Shown here piece after piece: positions 3,124 through 42,802 of a stretch of DNA of 64,000 nt. Every line of letters begins with the position of its first letter. Position 1 is the first letter of the stretch. The position numbers were made by a program, and so were the translations under genes. Location: NCBI GenBank assembly GCA_963664825.1, contig OY761614.1, positions 1,760,001-1,824,000 of the forward strand, written 5' to 3'. The notes under the pieces were generated by a model. The model saw only the letters and a list, made by a program, of their open reading frames with translations, searched no databases and had not been told where the DNA came from. This DNA comes from an uncultured Holophaga sp. GTDB taxonomy: Bacteria > Acidobacteriota > Holophagae > Holophagales > Holophagaceae.

Positions 3124-5208
3124 ATGGATCCATCCAAGCCCAGACGCCACCCCGAGCTGAACCGCCTCTACGCGGCGGTTCTGTTGACCGTCCTCATCGG
3201 TGTGATCTTCCGCAGCTACAAGATCCTCGGCGCCCAGGTGGAATCGGGCATCGATGCCCCCAGCCGCTGGGCCTTGATGGCGCTGGGTCTGGCTAATACG
3301 CTGGCCATCGGCACCCTGATCTTCATCATCGCCCGCACCCTGGCCAAACTCTACTTCGAACGGCGCCGGGGCATCCTCGGGGCCCGCATCCGCACGCGGC
3401 TGGTGCTGGCCTTCTTCGCGGTCTGCCTCCTGCCGAGCCTAGCCCTCTTCCTCATTGGCAGGGATTTCATCAGCAAGAACGTGAAGCGCTGGTTCGTGCC
3501 CGAGACCCAGGAGATGATCCTGGATGGGAAGGCCATTTCCAAGGCCTACCGCGGGCAGATGGAGGCCCGGCTCCGCAATGCCCTGGAGCGTCTTCCCGTG
3601 AGCGCCACCGGAGACCTGGGGGACCTGCGCCAGGAGGCGGGACTGGATCTTCTGATGCGTGTGGATTCCTCCGGCACTCCCCTGGATCTCGCCAAGGGGC
3701 TGCCTGCGCCCCTCATTCCCGGGGATATCTCCGGGGCGATTCTGCAGGATACGGGCCGGGGGATGTGGCTGCTGGCGCCCTCGGAGCTGAGGCGTCCGGG
3801 ACCGCGGTTTGTAGCGGGCTTCTTCGTGCCCAAGGAAATCCAGGATGGAATCCTGCGCCTGGACAAACGCTCCAAGGATTCCTCCCAGATCCATGCCTTC
3901 CGGGAAAACCTCGAGACTATTCCCCAGAACACCTTCCTATTGCTCACGCTCTTCACCCTATTCTTCGCCGTCTGGGTGGGGCTCGCCATCGCCCGCACCA
4001 TCTCGGAACCCGTGCGGGCCCTGGCCAAGGCCGCCCAGCGGGTGGGTACGGGTGATCTGGAGGTGCTGCTGCCGGTTCAGGGCGAGGACGAACTGGCCTT
4101 GCTCTCCGCCAGCTTCAACGCCATGACCCGGGACCTGCGCCAGAACCGATCGGCCCTCGACGCCCAGGCCGAGCGCATCAAGCGTGCGGGAACCTATCTC
4201 GGGCAGCTGCTGGAGGCCCTGCCCGTGGGTGTGCTCGGTTGGAACAAGGACGGTGAACTGCGCACCTTCAACCCCACCGCCCGCCGTTGGCTGGGTCTGG
4301 AAGGCTGGGATTCCTCCGCCTCTCAATGGAGTGAACTGGCAGTGCAACCCCGCATGGGCGGTCTGGCCACCCTGGTGAAGGAGGTCCGGGACGCCGGGCG
4401 CCCGCGGGAGGAGGAACTCCGCATCGGCGGCGAAGGCGAGGGCCGCCCTGTGCGCGCCATCGTGGTGCCGATCTCCGAAGGGGGGGAACTGGCGGTGCTG
4501 GAGGATCTCTCCCTGCTGGCCCAGGCCGAGAAACGTGCAGCCTGGCAGGAGGTAGCCCGGCGCATGGCCCACGAGGTGAAGAACCCCCTCACGCCCATCC
4601 AGCTCACGGCCCAGCGCTTGCTGCGCCGCAGCCGGGAAGGGCGCCTCGATCCCCAGAGTGTGGCCGAAGGGGCCGAGACGATCCTCGCGGAGGTGAAGAG
4701 TCTCTCCCGCCTGGTGGATAGCTTCAGCCGCTTTGCCAAGCTGCCCGCGCCCCAGCCCCGGCCCCTGGATGCCTGCGAACTCCTGCGCCAGGTCCAAGCC
4801 CTGTACGCGCCCACCCACCCGGGCATCCGCTTCGAACTCGAGAGCCCCAAGGGTCCCCTGGAGGTCCAGTGGGATGCCGATATGGTGAAGCGCGCCCTCA
4901 TCAATCTCGTCGATAATGCCGTGAGCGCCCTGGAGGAAAAGGGTTGCATCCGCCTTTCACTGAGCCCCGAGACTGGGCGCATTCGCCTTCAGGTGGAGGA
5001 CGATGGCGCGGGGGTGCCGGAAGAAATCCGGGAGCGGCTCTTCGAACCCTACTTCTCCACCAAGCGCAAGGGCACGGGCCTGGGGCTGGCCATCGTGCGC
5101 CGCATCGCCCAGGACCATGGGGGCGAGGCCCATTACCAGCCCCTTGCCCAGGGCAGCCAGTTCTGTCTGCTGTTGCCCCTGGTGCTTCCCCTGCGCGAAA
5201 TCCGCTGA
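3124..5208 (+). CDS. NtrY-like membrane sensor histidine kinase (TM, HAMP, PAS, HisKA, HATPase)
   Basis: AAWQEVARRMAHEVKNPLTPIQL H-box, NLVDNA, DDGAG and GTGLGL boxes. NtrY-like RIRTRLVLAF transmembrane segment. Confidence 0.9.
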   Translation: MDPSKPRRHPELNRLYAAVLLTVLIGVIFRSYKILGAQVESGIDAPSRWALMALGLANTLAIGTLIFIIARTLAKLYFERRRGILGARIRTRLVLAFFAVCLLPSLALFLIGRDFISKNVKRWFVPETQEMILDGKAISKAYRGQMEARLRNALERLPVSATGDLGDLRQEAGLDLLMRVDSSGTPLDLAKGLPAPLIPGDISGAILQDTGRGMWLLAPSELRRPGPRFVAGFFVPKEIQDGILRLDKRSKDSSQIHAFRENLETIPQNTFLLLTLFTLFFAVWVGLAIARTISEPVRALAKAAQRVGTGDLEVLLPVQGEDELALLSASFNAMTRDLRQNRSALDAQAERIKRAGTYLGQLLEALPVGVLGWNKDGELRTFNPTARRWLGLEGWDSSASQWSELAVQPRMGGLATLVKEVRDAGRPREEELRIGGEGEGRPVRAIVVPISEGGELAVLEDLSLLAQAEKRAAWQEVARRMAHEVKNPLTPIQLTAQRLLRRSREGRLDPQSVAEGAETILAEVKSLSRLVDSFSRFAKLPAPQPRPLDACELLRQVQALYAPTHPGIRFELESPKGPLEVQWDADMVKRALINLVDNAVSALEEKGCIRLSLSPETGRIRLQVEDDGAGVPEEIRERLFEPYFSTKRKGTGLGLAIVRRIAQDHGGEAHYQPLAQGSQFCLLLPLVLPLREIR

Positions 5209-38989: not shown

Positions 38990-40504
38990 TTATTCCACGA
39001 GGGTCGACAGTCCTTGTCTCGTTTTCTGGAACACGGGCAGATAGACCCGGAAGGTGCTGCCGTGGCCCAGCCTGCTCTCGACGGTCAGGGCCCCGCCATA
39101 AGCCTGGATTGCGCCGAGAACCACGGGCAGACCCAGCCCCCGACCGGCGAATTTGGTAGTGAAGAAGGGGTCGAATAGCTTTTCCATATCCGCCTCTGCG
39201 ACCCCGCTTCCGCTATCAGAAACTTCCAGGTAGGCGTATTGGGTCTCCTCCGGCTTCCAGCAGACAGGGAATCGATGGGCTTCCGGGATGTCTGTGGCCG
39301 AGCAGGTCCTGAGGCCCACGCGAAGGCTTCCCGGGGCATCCCCCAGGGCCTCCCGGGCGTTGACGAGCAGGTTCATCAGGACCCGCTGTATCTGATCTGT
39401 GCTGGCGATGACCACCGGACCAGGGGGCGGGCAATCCGCTTCCAGCTTCACGGTGCTGGGCAGGGTCCCCCGGAGGAGATGCAGGCTGGCTTGGCAGATC
39501 TCGGCCAGGTCGCAGGGTTCTTGTTGGGCATTGGTCTGTCCAAGGTAGACCCGCATCAGGTTGCTCACCTCCGCAGCCCTTTCGCAGGCCCCCTTGGCCA
39601 TGGTCAGGTATTTGGTGGGGTCTGAACCCCGTGGAAGTTCCTCCAGCAGCTCCAGGCTCGCCATCATCATCTGGAGCTGATTATTGAAGAGATGGGCGAT
39701 GGCTCCTGCCATGCGGCCCAGGCTTTCGGACTTTTGGAGTTGCCGGTTCTCGGCCTCCATGCGCCTGTGTTCGCTGATGTCGCTCACCATGAGGTGGTAG
39801 GCCCCAGGCTCCCTTGCGAGGGCCATATCGAGATGGGCCCAGAAGGGTGTGCCGTCCGCCTTCACCATGCGCAGTTCGCAAGACTGAGGGGCCTTGCTCT
39901 CCAGAAGCTGTTGGCGCCCCAGGAGGTAAAGGCCTTGATCCTCGGGAGCAATGAATTGGGAGATCGTGCGCATGACCAGCCCAGTCTCCCCCACCCCCAG
40001 CAGGGTGGTCGTCGTGAGGTTGGCCTCGAGGATAAGGTCCCGTTCATTAAGGCTGCAATAGCCGATGGGGGCCCGATCATAGAGATCGAAATAGCGGGAC
40101 CTCGTGGTTTTAAGTTCCACTTCCGTTCGGCGCAAGGCCTCGTTTTGTGCCTCCAGTTCGACCTGGCGCACGCGCAGCTCGTGGATGACCTGCTGGGTGG
40201 CTTCGGGGGACATGGCCTCACAGAGATCCAGCAGGGCCTCCAACCGGATGCGCTCCTCGGCCTGCCAGCGTTCCTGGGTCCCATCCCTCCGTTCTTGCGA
40301 CGGGGGTGTCTTAAGGGCCACGTTATCCTGGGGGCTGAAGACCTGGAGAGATGGTGGACACGCGCGGAGCATGCTCAGGGTCTCGCCCTTGCGCCGATGC
40401 TTCGTTCGGCGACGTTCGCCTGAGCTCCGGCGCTCCTCCAAGCGCCTCCGTTCACCGAATCCCTGGCGCTTGAGGTCCTCGCCCTCGCTGGGGGACTGGA
40501 TCAT
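38990..40504 (-). CDS. cytoplasmic PAS-domain sensor histidine kinase
   Basis: HELRV.QVELE.QNE coil, YFDLYD.APIGY PAS, ESLGRMAGAIAHLFNN H-box, DSGSG and PFFTTK..GRGLGL. Confidence 0.88.
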   Translation of the reverse strand: MIQSPSEGEDLKRQGFGERRRLEERRSSGERRRTKHRRKGETLSMLRACPPSLQVFSPQDNVALKTPPSQERRDGTQERWQAEERIRLEALLDLCEAMSPEATQQVIHELRVRQVELEAQNEALRRTEVELKTTRSRYFDLYDRAPIGYCSLNERDLILEANLTTTTLLGVGETGLVMRTISQFIAPEDQGLYLLGRQQLLESKAPQSCELRMVKADGTPFWAHLDMALAREPGAYHLMVSDISEHRRMEAENRQLQKSESLGRMAGAIAHLFNNQLQMMMASLELLEELPRGSDPTKYLTMAKGACERAAEVSNLMRVYLGQTNAQQEPCDLAEICQASLHLLRGTLPSTVKLEADCPPPGPVVIASTDQIQRVLMNLLVNAREALGDAPGSLRVGLRTCSATDIPEAHRFPVCWKPEETQYAYLEVSDSGSGVAEADMEKLFDPFFTTKFAGRGLGLPVVLGAIQAYGGALTVESRLGHGSTFRVYLPVFQKTRQGLSTLVE

Positions 40505-40746
40505 GGCGTCCTCCGAATCTGCCTTGGCTCGCCGTCGACCTGGAATTACGTTTGAAGTGCAGGGCTCACATCATAGTCCCAAATCCGAGCAAGCCCATAC
40601 AGGTTCTCCTCTGGTAGTGGGTCAGTTTGGAAATACTTCCTGGTTGGTCCTCTGCTATACAACAAAGTCGACCCTGGCCCAGGGGTGTCTTGTTGTGTGC
40701 AGCAAAAGTCATACGGCGAAATACGTCAGATTGTTTTTGTCTCGTC

Positions 40747-40774
40747 TTGACTTGGGACAAAATGGTCCGACAAT
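40747..40774 (+). promoter_or_regulatory. putative sigma70 promoter (TTGACT-16 nt-GACAAT)
   Basis: Near-consensus -35 and partial -10 just upstream of the GAGGTGG RBS of the 40792 ORF. Confidence 0.35.
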
Positions 40775-40791
40775 GATGGTTGAGGTGGACC

Positions 40792-41196
40792 ATGGACCCA
40801 CGACAGTTTGAAGCATTGGAGGCAGCAATTCGTTTCAAGATTGCTGCGGAGCAGGTAGCTCTTGAAGCAAAAGCTAAGGAAGATGCAGCCGCAAAAGAGT
40901 ACCAAAAGATCCGGACTGAACTTCTTGCTGGGTCGGCAGGACAACTTCCGTTAGAACCGCTCTCTGGTGAGTTGGGGCCATCCCCGGCCACACCGGATAG
41001 GTCTGTCATCCGCAATGTGGCTGGATACTTTGAAACCCATGTCGGCCATGACGTTCGGATTGAAGAAATTTCCGAACACCTCGGTGGGGTCCCCGCTAGC
41101 AGTGTTCGAAGTGCTCTCTCTCGTCTTGTTGCACTGAACAAGATCAAAAAAGTAGGGAGAGGAACGTATGTTTCACTAACCGGAGGTTCTGCATGA
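40792..41196 (+). CDS. hypothetical protein: N-terminal coiled coil plus C-terminal winged helix-turn-helix
   Basis: IEEISEHL..VPASSVRSALSRLV...KIKKVGRGTY wHTH pattern. Codon usage is more AT-rich than flanking genes. Confidence 0.7.
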   Translation: MDPRQFEALEAAIRFKIAAEQVALEAKAKEDAAAKEYQKIRTELLAGSAGQLPLEPLSGELGPSPATPDRSVIRNVAGYFETHVGHDVRIEEISEHLGGVPASSVRSALSRLVALNKIKKVGRGTYVSLTGGSA

Positions 41197-41233
41197 AGTT
41201 ACTGTGAGGCCGATGGACGGCGGCCAGCATCAA

Positions 41234-41372
41234 TACGAAAACGGCCAGGGAGTGGGATCCCTGGCGCGTTCGTACTGTTTAACCATCATGTCGGGAGGAG
41301 TGCCCCCCATTCTTGTGTCTAAAGTGTAGGGCGCTCCTCCCATGTCTGCAACAAAAACCTCAACATGGGAGG
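41234..41372 (+). promoter_or_regulatory. structured leader with mutually exclusive anti-SD and anti-anti-SD stems
   Basis: Hairpin 41234-41274. Stem 41293-41305/41329-41341 competes with stem 41336-41345/41363-41372, which covers the GGGAGG RBS. Confidence 0.55.
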
Positions 41373-41378
41373 TGGCCT

Positions 41379-41522
41379 ATGGCTTACCGTTTCAAGCCCC
41401 CTGACGACAAAGACGGATGGTGTCTGATTTTCAGAATGACCATCACTGACCCAAGGACTGGGCAGAGCAGGCGTCGTCCCAACGGACGACCTTGGCCGAT
41501 CTGGGTCAAGAATACACAGTAG
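41379..41522 (+). CDS. 47-aa small protein
   Basis: Strong GGGAGGT RBS. Sequence MAYRFKPPDDKDGWCLIFRMTITDPRTGQSRRRPNGRPWPIWVKNTQ, followed by a terminator-like hairpin. Confidence 0.65.
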   Translation: MAYRFKPPDDKDGWCLIFRMTITDPRTGQSRRRPNGRPWPIWVKNTQ

Positions 41523-41534
41523 TTTGTAAGTCCA

Positions 41535-41571
41535 GAGAGGGGCGAGTGTTGACTCGCCCCTCTCAACTTTT
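41535..41571 (+). terminator. intrinsic terminator-like hairpin between convergent genes
   Basis: Perfect 13-bp stem GAGAGGGGCGAGT-GTTG-ACTCGCCCCTCTC followed by AACTTTT. Confidence 0.7.
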
Positions 41572-41590
41572 GTCCGTGAAGAGCCTTTAT

Positions 41591-42802
41591 TTAGCGGCGC
41601 TTCCGCTGCATCTCCGCCACGTCCCGTACGCCGGTGATCGCCGTCTCGATGTGGCCCATGTTATTGAAGGCGCCGATCCCGAAGCGCACGGCGCCGTGGA
41701 GTTTATCGGTGCCCAGATGCTCGTGAACCATGGGCGTGCAGTGCAGGCCCGTGCGGCAGGCGATGTTGTAGTCCACATCCAGCATGGTGCCGACATCCAT
41801 GGCCTCCATGCCGTCCACGTTGAAGGAGAGCACGCTGATGCGCCCCTTGCCCGCGTCCTCCGCGCAGTACATCGTCACGCCCTCGATTTGGGAGAGTCCA
41901 TCCCGCAGCTTGGTCCAGAGTGCCATCTCGTGGCGATGGATGGCCTCCAGGCCGATGCGGTTCACCCATTTCACACCCGCATTGAGGCCGGCGATGCCGG
42001 GCAGGTTCGGTGTGCCGTATTCCATGCGATAGGGATACTCGTCCAGGTGGAGGCGCTGGGCGCTCTTCACGCCGGTGCCCCCGGCGCGGGTGTGCTTGAT
42101 GTCGACGCCTTCCCGCACGTACATGCCGCCGATGCCCATGGGCCCCATCAGGCTCTTGTGGCCGGTGAAACAGACGATATCGGCGTTCAGCTCATCCATC
42201 TTCACCGGCACCATGCCCGCGGTCTGGCTCACGTCCAGGATGAACCGGATGCCCCGTTCCCGGCAGGCCTTCCCCACGGTGGCCGCGTCCTGCACGGTGC
42301 CGATGACATTGGAACCGTGGTTCATCACGACGGCCTTGGTGTTGGCCTTGAACTTGGAAATGATCTCCTGGGGATCCACGTAGCCCTTGGAATCGAAATC
42401 CACCCAGTCCACCTGGGCGCCATCCTGCTCCAGTTTCCAGAGGGGGCGGAGGCTGGCGTTGTGCTCCACGTGGGTGGTGACGACGTGGTCGCCGGGTTCG
42501 ATGCTGCCCCAGATGGCCAGATTGAGGGCGTCCGTGGAGTTGTAGCCAAAGACCAGGCGATTGGATTCCGTGCCGCCGAAGAAGGCCGTCAGCAACTTGC
42601 GGGTCTCGTCCACAAGGCTCCCGGCCTCCAGACAGAGATCGAAGCCGCTGCGGCCGGGATTGACGCCCGCGCTGCGGTAGAACGTGTCCATGAAGGCGTA
42701 GACTTCCGGCGGCTTGGGAAAGGAGGTGGCCCCGTTATCGAGGTAGATCATCTTCACCTCGGGGGGGATGGGCAGGTTGAGAAAGGGGCTATTGGTGTTC
42801 AT
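41591..42802 (-). CDS. class V PLP aminotransferase / cysteine desulfurase family protein
   Basis: IYLDNGATSFPKP, EHNA, D.SQTAG, FTGHKSLMGP (PLP Lys), EYGTPN and CRTGLHCTP (catalytic Cys region). Confidence 0.9.
   Translation of the reverse strand: MNTNSPFLNLPIPPEVKMIYLDNGATSFPKPPEVYAFMDTFYRSAGVNPGRSGFDLCLEAGSLVDETRKLLTAFFGGTESNRLVFGYNSTDALNLAIWGSIEPGDHVVTTHVEHNASLRPLWKLEQDGAQVDWVDFDSKGYVDPQEIISKFKANTKAVVMNHGSNVIGTVQDAATVGKACRERGIRFILDVSQTAGMVPVKMDELNADIVCFTGHKSLMGPMGIGGMYVREGVDIKHTRAGGTGVKSAQRLHLDEYPYRMEYGTPNLPGIAGLNAGVKWVNRIGLEAIHRHEMALWTKLRDGLSQIEGVTMYCAEDAGKGRISVLSFNVDGMEAMDVGTMLDVDYNIACRTGLHCTPMVHEHLGTDKLHGAVRFGIGAFNNMGHIETAITGVRDVAEMQRKRR

Follow-up and report, generated by a model that had tools for sequence, protein, structure and literature searches.

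A small-protein gene with a Shine-Dalgarno-masking leader and a predicted antisense RNA on a low-G+C islet of an uncultured Holophaga genome

Small toxic or regulatory proteins that are controlled by an antisense RNA are hard to find, and those described come mostly from enterobacteria and Firmicutes, according to PMC5367252. The type I toxin-antitoxin loci hok/sok, zorO/orzO, aapA1/IsoA1 and bsrG/SR4 share with the locus described in this study an open reading frame (ORF) of fewer than 60 amino acids (aa), a long structured leader that masks the Shine-Dalgarno (SD) sequence, a location in prophages or islands, and a short antisense RNA that is encoded in cis and has a promoter and terminator of its own, a unit that is here predicted from the sequence. 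In bsrG/SR4 the antitoxin binds away from the SD, the SD-sequestering helix grows from 4 to 8 bp and translation is blocked (PMC3834814). The present locus centres on an ORF of 47 codons within a 64,000-nucleotide (nt) stretch, hereafter the window, of the genome of an uncultured Holophaga sp. of the phylum Acidobacteriota (contig OY761614.1, positions 1,760,001 to 1,824,000); all coordinates refer to the window. An earlier note on this DNA had proposed that the ORF lies under a two-state RNA switch. The analysis makes it probable, short of a firm assignment, that the locus is an antisense-controlled small gene on an islet of about 1 kb, resembling either a type I toxin-antitoxin locus or a counter-transcript system of plasmids and phages.

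41379 to 41522, plus strand: small ORF encoding a basic protein of 47 aa (7 R, 3 K, 4 D), predicted to be all beta-strand.

A word-indexed search returned two metagenome proteins with 71% and 69% identity to the 47-aa protein, and homologues on metagenome contigs show 61-71% identity. Scanning of metagenomes yielded four contigs with the small gene (loci L016, L017, L018 and L019); a fifth match (L020), which sits within a long membrane protein, was set aside. A profile search of 1.84 billion representatives found 21 proteins at E <= 1e-3 with the common motif hIFRMT..TGK.IRR.NGRP(W/F).I(W/V), 18 of them 40-57 aa long. Among 400 genomes of the phylum there was one credible protein match (E = 2e-5), in genome G140 of the same family, whose gene (locus L004) encodes a more distant 45-aa form also present in two Holophagaceae-titled records (L011 and L014); 72 further matches at E <= 0.1 are weak, most of them being embedded in long frames or interrupted by stop codons. 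The window protein retrieved nothing by tblastn from 72,556 plasmids or from phages, and a viral scan with the alignment of close homologues gave no match; a narrower alignment identified 15 viral loci with the small gene. Over a core of 31 codons, synonymous divergence (pS) is 0.36-1.06 and its ratio to nonsynonymous divergence, expressed as pN/pS, is 0.12-0.31; on these values the ORF is under purifying selection at the protein level, with silent sites near saturation. Since homologues were recovered by metagenome, profile and viral searches and pN/pS is low at high pS, the comparisons indicate that the small ORF is a genuine gene and belongs to a family without annotation. Two alternative readings of its 5' region were rejected: an in-frame upstream extension that would give a longer N-terminus is closed by a stop codon in L016, and the ATGs at 41342 and 41365, candidates for a leader peptide, are conserved neither as starts nor in frame in L016 and L017.

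The 47-aa protein has no Pfam or NCBIfam match, its matches to Protein Data Bank sequences (all at E >= 0.1) are to G5 domains, and fold searches gave a best E of 2.2 with Foldseek and a best Z of 2.8 with VIA-align. Its hits in the ESM Atlas, with scores of 0.86, are to unnamed clusters only. Nine of the 25 members of the small-protein alignment match phrog_4533, a function-unknown PHROG family without annotation (best E 7.7e-07); the window's own protein is not among them and has no PHROG match at E <= 1. The AlphaFold model (pLDDT 82) consists of strands only.

The leader of this gene contains two overlapping helices.

41293 to 41341, plus strand: stem P1 of 13 bp, GGGAGGAGTGCCC (41293-305) with GGGCGCTCCTCCC (41329-41).
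41336 to 41372, plus strand: hairpin P2, a perfect 10 bp, anti-SD CCUCCCAUGU (41336-45) with SD ACAUGGGAGG (41363-72).

The SD, GGGAGG (41367-72), is located 6 nt before the ATG at 41379. The earlier note had described segment 41336-45 (CCTCCCATGT) as the perfect complement of 41363-72 (ACATGGGAGG), ribosome-binding site included, and a 13-bp stem (41293-305 with 41329-41) as the alternative; reading of the sequence confirms the first as an exact reverse complement, and the second forms part of the minimum-free-energy fold of a 381-nt stretch. This stretch folds at -171.1 kcal/mol, versus -129.3 +/- 6.1 for 100 dinucleotide shuffles, none of which folds as well (z = -6.9). P1 comprises 12 Watson-Crick pairs and one U.G; its 5' arm is SD-like (GGGAGG) and its 3' arm bears the anti-SD.

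Conservation of P1 was scored by coordinates, MAFFT having placed the 5' arm wrongly in L017 and L018. In the window, L016, L017 and L018, 47 of 52 cells pair, against 21-28 of 52 with the partner slid by 1-3 nt, and the covariation check proposed for the stem thus came out in its favour. Double changes occur in five of the 13 columns (G-C/U-A, A-U/G-C, G-C/A-U, C-G/A-U and C-G/U-A). Four cells are G.U pairs that would be A.C if read on the other strand, and one is the other way round; the helix therefore belongs to the plus-strand RNA. By these counts P1 is kept by compensatory change despite the saturated silent sites.

With respect to P2, the anti-SD CCTCC and the SD GGAGG are invariant in close homologues, and L016 possesses the same 10-bp hairpin, in which U.G and G-C replace the outer pairs G-C and U-A. 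Equivalents of this SD-sequestering hairpin are found in L016, L017, L019 and L004; the leaders of L019 and L004 are otherwise unalignable, yet each contains a CCUCCU or CCCC element able to pair with the SD. The loop of P1 varies in length and sequence, and that of P2 also varies in length. Within the same region a local 5-bp hairpin, ACCUC/GAGGU (41357-41373), masks the SD weakly even with P1 formed; on the minus strand it is followed by TTTTGTTGCA and is reported as terminator-like by the scanner.

Upstream of the start codon the minus strand carries the elements of a small transcription unit.

41323 to 41351, minus strand: predicted antisense promoter, TTGCAG (41351-46), a 17-nt spacer and TACACT (41328-23), scoring 7/12.
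41237 to 41316, minus strand: predicted antisense RNA of about 80 nt, with its transcription start site near 41316 and its 3' end near 41237.
41234 to 41274, minus strand: hairpin P0 (core 41265-41244), predicted antisense terminator, 8 pairs, 6 of them G-C, then GUUUUCGUAUU.

The invariant columns of the leader are those of the SD, the anti-SD and the ATG together with two boxes, AAGTGTA and GCAAC, which are 19 nt apart in all four close sequences, while GCAAC and the SD are variably spaced. AGUGUA has no conserved pairing partner; it is matched by ACAC in three sequences and by CAUU in the window. Read on the minus strand, the two boxes give the -10 and -35 hexamers of the predicted promoter, and hexamers with the same positions and the same 17-nt spacing are present in L016 (TTGCGA-17-TACACT) and in L017 and L018 (TTGCTT-17-TACACT), and the spacer of the window's predicted promoter is the anti-SD arm itself. 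The unalignable lineages carry TTGAGA-17-TAGACT (9/12; L004, L011 and L014) and TTGAAA-17-TATACT (10/12; L019) on the minus strand, again with the anti-SD covered by the spacer, and an independent scanner reported the sites of L004 and L019 as the only promoter-like sites in those regions. Shuffled leaders contain sites with a 17-nt spacer at 5-11e-4 per nt for scores of at least 7/12 and 2-9e-5 for at least 9/12, figures that are indicative only, the criteria having been set after the sites were seen. The 64-kb window has no site of this spacing with a score of at least 9/12.

P0 lies about 55 nt downstream of the minus-strand promoter and is conserved with compensatory changes in L016 and L017. 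The long upstream hairpin of the earlier note was recovered with a core at 41244-41265, extendable to 41234-74, and followed on the minus strand by CGTTTTCGTA. The minus-strand tail after P0 is GUUUUCGUAUU in the window, GUUUUCAUUU in L016 and GUUUUGCUU in L017, GUUUU following the hairpin in three of three homologues that retain it; the plus side has no U-run. Minus-strand terminators were reported by the scanner in the window, L016 and L019, and none upstream in L004. Because a minus-strand promoter is followed by the P0 terminator, an antisense RNA of about 80 nt is predicted, and we infer that it is transcribed from the minus strand. Its complement in the mRNA would take in P0, the single-stranded linker (41270-92), and the loop and 5' arm of P1. 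The suggestion of an antisense RNA ending at the 41234-74 hairpin has thereby gained support from a conserved promoter (41351-41323) and a conserved orientation of the terminator.

A comparable arrangement is found in prophages. In 12 of the 15 viral loci (L022-L033; the leaders of L023 and L024 are identical) the minus strand has TTGACA-18-TAnnnT, scoring 10-11/12, at 68-88 nt before the ATG. L021 offers minus-strand sites of only 8-9/12, and L034 and L035 have no leader site at >= 8/12. The -35 hexamer TTGACA is invariant in all 11 aligned leaders; in the leaders that were aligned and inspected, the promoter is followed by a minus-strand hairpin with a U-run adjoining the upstream gene. Where ORFs were listed, the upstream genes are XRE-type and ImmA-like (L029, L031 and L032), and in L022 and Achromobacter phage CF418P1 (L036) a fused XRE/ImmA-like gene is annotated 'antitoxin'. 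Several viral loci are located within a few kb of a contig end. In CF418P1 the conserved 40-aa ORF (locus 3501-3620) is itself unannotated and a hypothetical coding sequence is annotated opposite to it at 3456-3677, which is probably a strand mis-call. Taken across lineages, the gene family is accompanied by a small predicted antisense transcription unit immediately before the start codon. The 18-nt promoter spacer of L022-L033 (alignment columns ~37-54) is an inverted repeat whose arms co-vary (GTCGG..CCGAC, ATCAGG..CCTGAT, TGCC..GGCA); it could be a hairpin of the mRNA or a dimer operator within the antisense promoter.

The following mode of action is proposed for antisense control of the small gene. 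An RNA of about 80 nt (41316 to 41237) would be made from the minus strand and would pair with the operon mRNA along the linker and the P1 5' arm. In the window copy this pairing would free the anti-SD arm, P2 would close over the SD and translation would stop; RNase III might in addition cleave the duplex. When no antisense RNA is present, P1 would prevail and the SD would be masked only weakly. The 47-aa protein would then be a harmful or dose-sensitive product needing tight control. In the window the P1 state has an energy of -40.5 kcal/mol versus -34.4 for the P2 state (P2 probability 0.003), and in the mRNA alone the SD is involved only in the weak 5-bp hairpin, with an unpaired probability of 0.41. 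When the stretch complementary to the antisense RNA is blocked, the best fold forms P2 and the unpaired probability of the SD falls from 0.41 to 0.10. A mechanism in which the antisense RNA pairs directly with the region of the start codon was also considered and rejected, as shuffled RNAs pair equally well (fraction of shuffles at least as good, 0.07-0.83).

Several observations weigh against this proposal. The window promoter is weak (7/12, with TTGCAG as its -35) and below the scanner's threshold, as is that of L016 (8/12), and the case for both is made by their positional conservation. The U-run of the antisense terminator consists of four U only. The same leader is carried by only three to four close homologues, and the covariation statistics are correspondingly thin. 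The prophage leaders differ, with no anti-SD found in them. The same blocking of the complementary stretch has a weaker effect in L017 (0.32 to 0.20) and does not close the SD elsewhere (L016, 0.02 to 0.17; L019, 0.17 to 0.23; L004, 0.44 to 0.37 only), and in L016, L017 and L018 an SD-masking hairpin coexists with most of P1. The protein lacks the hydrophobic helix of most type I toxins, its longest hydrophobic run being WCLIF, and the searches by family, fold and structure gave no match that would point to toxicity. The two-state switch of the earlier note is supported, with a limit: both folds are conserved with compensatory changes in L016, L017 and L018, and their strict mutual exclusion is, in the modelled folds, clear in the window copy only. 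The features that appear general across lineages are SD masking and the predicted antisense RNA, which could equally well act through duplex-dependent decay or by blocking an activating step.

The whole cassette (40505-41590) is an islet of low G+C content, 0.49-0.54 over 40500-41570 compared with about 0.65 around it. It is flanked by a histidine kinase gene and a class-V aminotransferase (cysteine desulfurase-like) gene, which in genome G006 of the same genus are 146 nt apart, versus 1077 nt in the window, the islet being missing. Its DNA has no match in 40 relatives, the genome itself contains no second copy of the locus, and no direct repeat of at least 8 nt marks a target-site duplication at the islet ends. 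Genes near the homologues include an integrase (tyrosine recombinase), an ISL3-like transposase, a resolvase fragment and a PD-Lambda-2_C/Beta-protein defence gene. Owing to the low G+C content, the absence from relatives and the mobile-element and defence genes beside homologues, the islet of about 1 kb is best read as acquired, a small mobile two-gene cassette that would consist of a winged-helix regulator gene and the gene for the 47-aa basic protein. In the Holophagaceae homologue L004 the next gene 3' of the small ORF (1766-2977) is of the Beta_protein/PD-Lambda-2_C type (Pfam E = 1e-59, PADLOC E = 2e-40); judged by this neighbour, the L004 cassette is located in a defence-gene neighbourhood.

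The remaining elements of the cassette are as follows.

40747 to 40774, plus strand: promoter-like site TTGACT-16-GACAAT, scoring 9/12, ahead of the upstream regulator gene.
40792 to 41196, plus strand: upstream gene of 134 aa, with ATG at 40792 and SD GAGGTG.
41206 to 41233, no strand assigned: conserved box GAGGCC-N(4-9)-GGCCAGCATCAA with a small GGCCN/NGGCC hairpin, containing invariant columns of the leader alignment.
41535 to 41564, plus strand: terminator hairpin after the small ORF, 13 pairs, tail AACTTTTGTC.

The upstream protein has a coiled-coil-like N-terminal segment and a C-terminal winged helix-turn-helix, with weak matches to DUF4423, GntR, AbiEi_4 and AbiEi. A gene of this same build precedes the small ORF in L016, L017, L019 and L004. 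The site at 40747-74 is likely the operon promoter: it is the sole sigma-70-like site reported by the promoter scanner in 40400-42000. No plus-strand promoter of at least 7/12 was found between P0 and P1 in the window, L016 or L017; the small ORF has no promoter of its own among the sites found, 40747-74 being the lone plus-strand site in the islet, and its co-transcription with the upstream gene is therefore inferred. The terminator-like hairpin that had been noted after the ORF was confirmed (13 bp, 41535-64), and an equivalent hairpin stands 3' of the small ORF in L016, L017, L018, L019 and L004.

L018 departs from this organisation, with an ISL3-like transposase gene in place of the upstream gene and its leader cut about 95 nt before the ATG. 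The upstream gene, P0 and the antisense terminator have been lost; around 3317-3346 the junction creates a plus-strand promoter-like site, TTCCCG-18-AATAAT (8/12), directly before P1. The box at 41206-41233 is situated just beyond the predicted antisense RNA and is nearly invariant in the window, L016 and L017; changes in its GGCCN/NGGCC hairpin preserve pairing, and L019 has GGCCATCAA again in its terminator loop. The box might serve as an operator to which the winged-helix protein encoded upstream responds, or as a processing site.

Among other explanations, the one that best survives, although we regard it as unlikely, is that the structured leader acts by itself: P1 and P2 would restrain translation of the distal cistron in cis, a brake that would be released by processing, temperature, translation or ribosome standby, or by some protein, for example the winged-helix one encoded upstream or the small protein itself, with P0 merely stabilising or attenuating the operon transcript and the minus-strand promoter look-alike left unused. 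The SD is indeed masked without an antisense RNA in L016 (unpaired 0.02) and partly so in L017 and L018, and the window's 7/12 minus-strand site is under the scanner's threshold. Such a brake leaves unexplained, however, why AAGTGTA and GCAAC are invariant at fixed spacing while the pairing partners change (CAUU:AGUG in the window, ACAC:GUGU in the others), why L004, L019 and 12 of the 15 prophage loci have a minus-strand promoter of 9-11/12 at the corresponding position, and why the U-run of P0 always lies on its minus side.

Rather more improbable is a real small RNA gene that does not act on the small ORF, its product being a trans-acting RNA or a counter-transcript on the 3' end of the upstream gene, or its transcription simply interfering. 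The gap between the end of the antisense unit and the upstream stop codon is indeed 41 nt, and 3 nt in L019, no complementarity to an SD-masking element could be shown in the prophage branch, and the blocking experiment in silico fails to close the SD in L016, L019 and L004. Against this, the unit travels with the small ORF while the upstream gene varies (winged-helix in the islands, XRE plus ImmA-like in the prophages, an insertion sequence element in L018), and the RNA would be fully complementary to the P1 5' arm, whose plus-strand pairing has covariation support.

The earlier note had pointed out that the anti-SD/anti-anti-SD layout typifies riboswitches and type I toxin mRNAs; sequence comparison backs the type I-like reading and lends nothing to the riboswitch. 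The Rfam scan proposed to examine the matter returned nothing relevant in the window, L016, L017, L019 or L004: no riboswitch family is among the five weak window matches (E >= 0.1) or the four weak matches in the other loci. A metabolite-sensing riboswitch, with P1 in the aptamer and P2 as the expression platform, would fit the layout and the highly stable fold, but is very improbable, given that no Rfam family matches the window or the four homologous loci even at E <= 1-10, that the invariant positions (in few sequences) are the SD, the anti-SD and two promoter hexamers with no conserved unpaired junction core left, that the P1 loop is variable in length and sequence, and that the regulated gene encodes a mobile small protein rather than a metabolic one. 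An RNA thermometer of the ROSE or fourU type was rejected, with no Rfam match and with P2 a perfect 10-bp helix, not a weak or mismatched one.

Returning to antisense control, a wider and more specific version of it is conceivable, though we hold it doubtful: a hitherto unrecognised, horizontally mobile type I toxin-antitoxin-like family, spread over Acidobacteriota islands and proteobacterial prophages, whose toxin would be a soluble, Arg-rich beta-hairpin mini-protein instead of a membrane peptide and whose island members would have the antisense promoter inside the anti-SD arm. A single stretch of 29 bp would then encode both an arm of the switch and the promoter from which its triggering RNA is made. 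The locus is a candidate from a phylum that has been little studied, has prophage relatives and is built around a small ORF of a kind routinely missed by annotation. If the antisense RNA and a phenotype prove true, it would represent a new small-protein family with a non-membrane mode of action, and a compact case in which the coding of a promoter overlaps that of an arm of an RNA switch. Failing such confirmation, what still stands is a mobile cassette with a well-conserved leader that masks the SD.

Compared with known systems, the locus differs from type I toxins in that its 47-aa protein is hydrophilic and strongly basic, with a prediction of beta-strands throughout and no hydrophobic helix, and from type I loci in the linkage of an upstream winged-helix regulator gene to the small ORF. 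The latter feature recalls the counter-transcript modules copB-copA/CopT-repA of plasmid R1, copG-rnaII-repB of pMV158 and arc-sar-ant of phage P22, which we take to be comparable. The shared order is a repressor-type gene, a leader with a convergent antisense RNA gene (predicted here) and the regulated gene, same-strand and operon-like; this repressor-leader-target order is found here, with weak matches for the winged-helix protein. Unlike in those modules, the regulated 47-aa product has no Rep, antirepressor or other known domain. Plasmid copy control of the R1 or pMV158 type was rejected, with no Rep match in Pfam, NCBIfam or PHROG and nothing in the 72,556 plasmids, and no origin or replication genes were found near the cassette.

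The distribution of the small-ORF family is a further difference. Most known type I families are confined to one phylum (PMC5367252), in contrast to the present family, which crosses phyla on mobile DNA, occurring in a Holophagaceae genome, on metagenome islands and in Achromobacter-type prophages. In its proposed mechanism the locus comes nearest to SR4/bsrG, which is the closest parallel to the proposed shift from P1 to P2.

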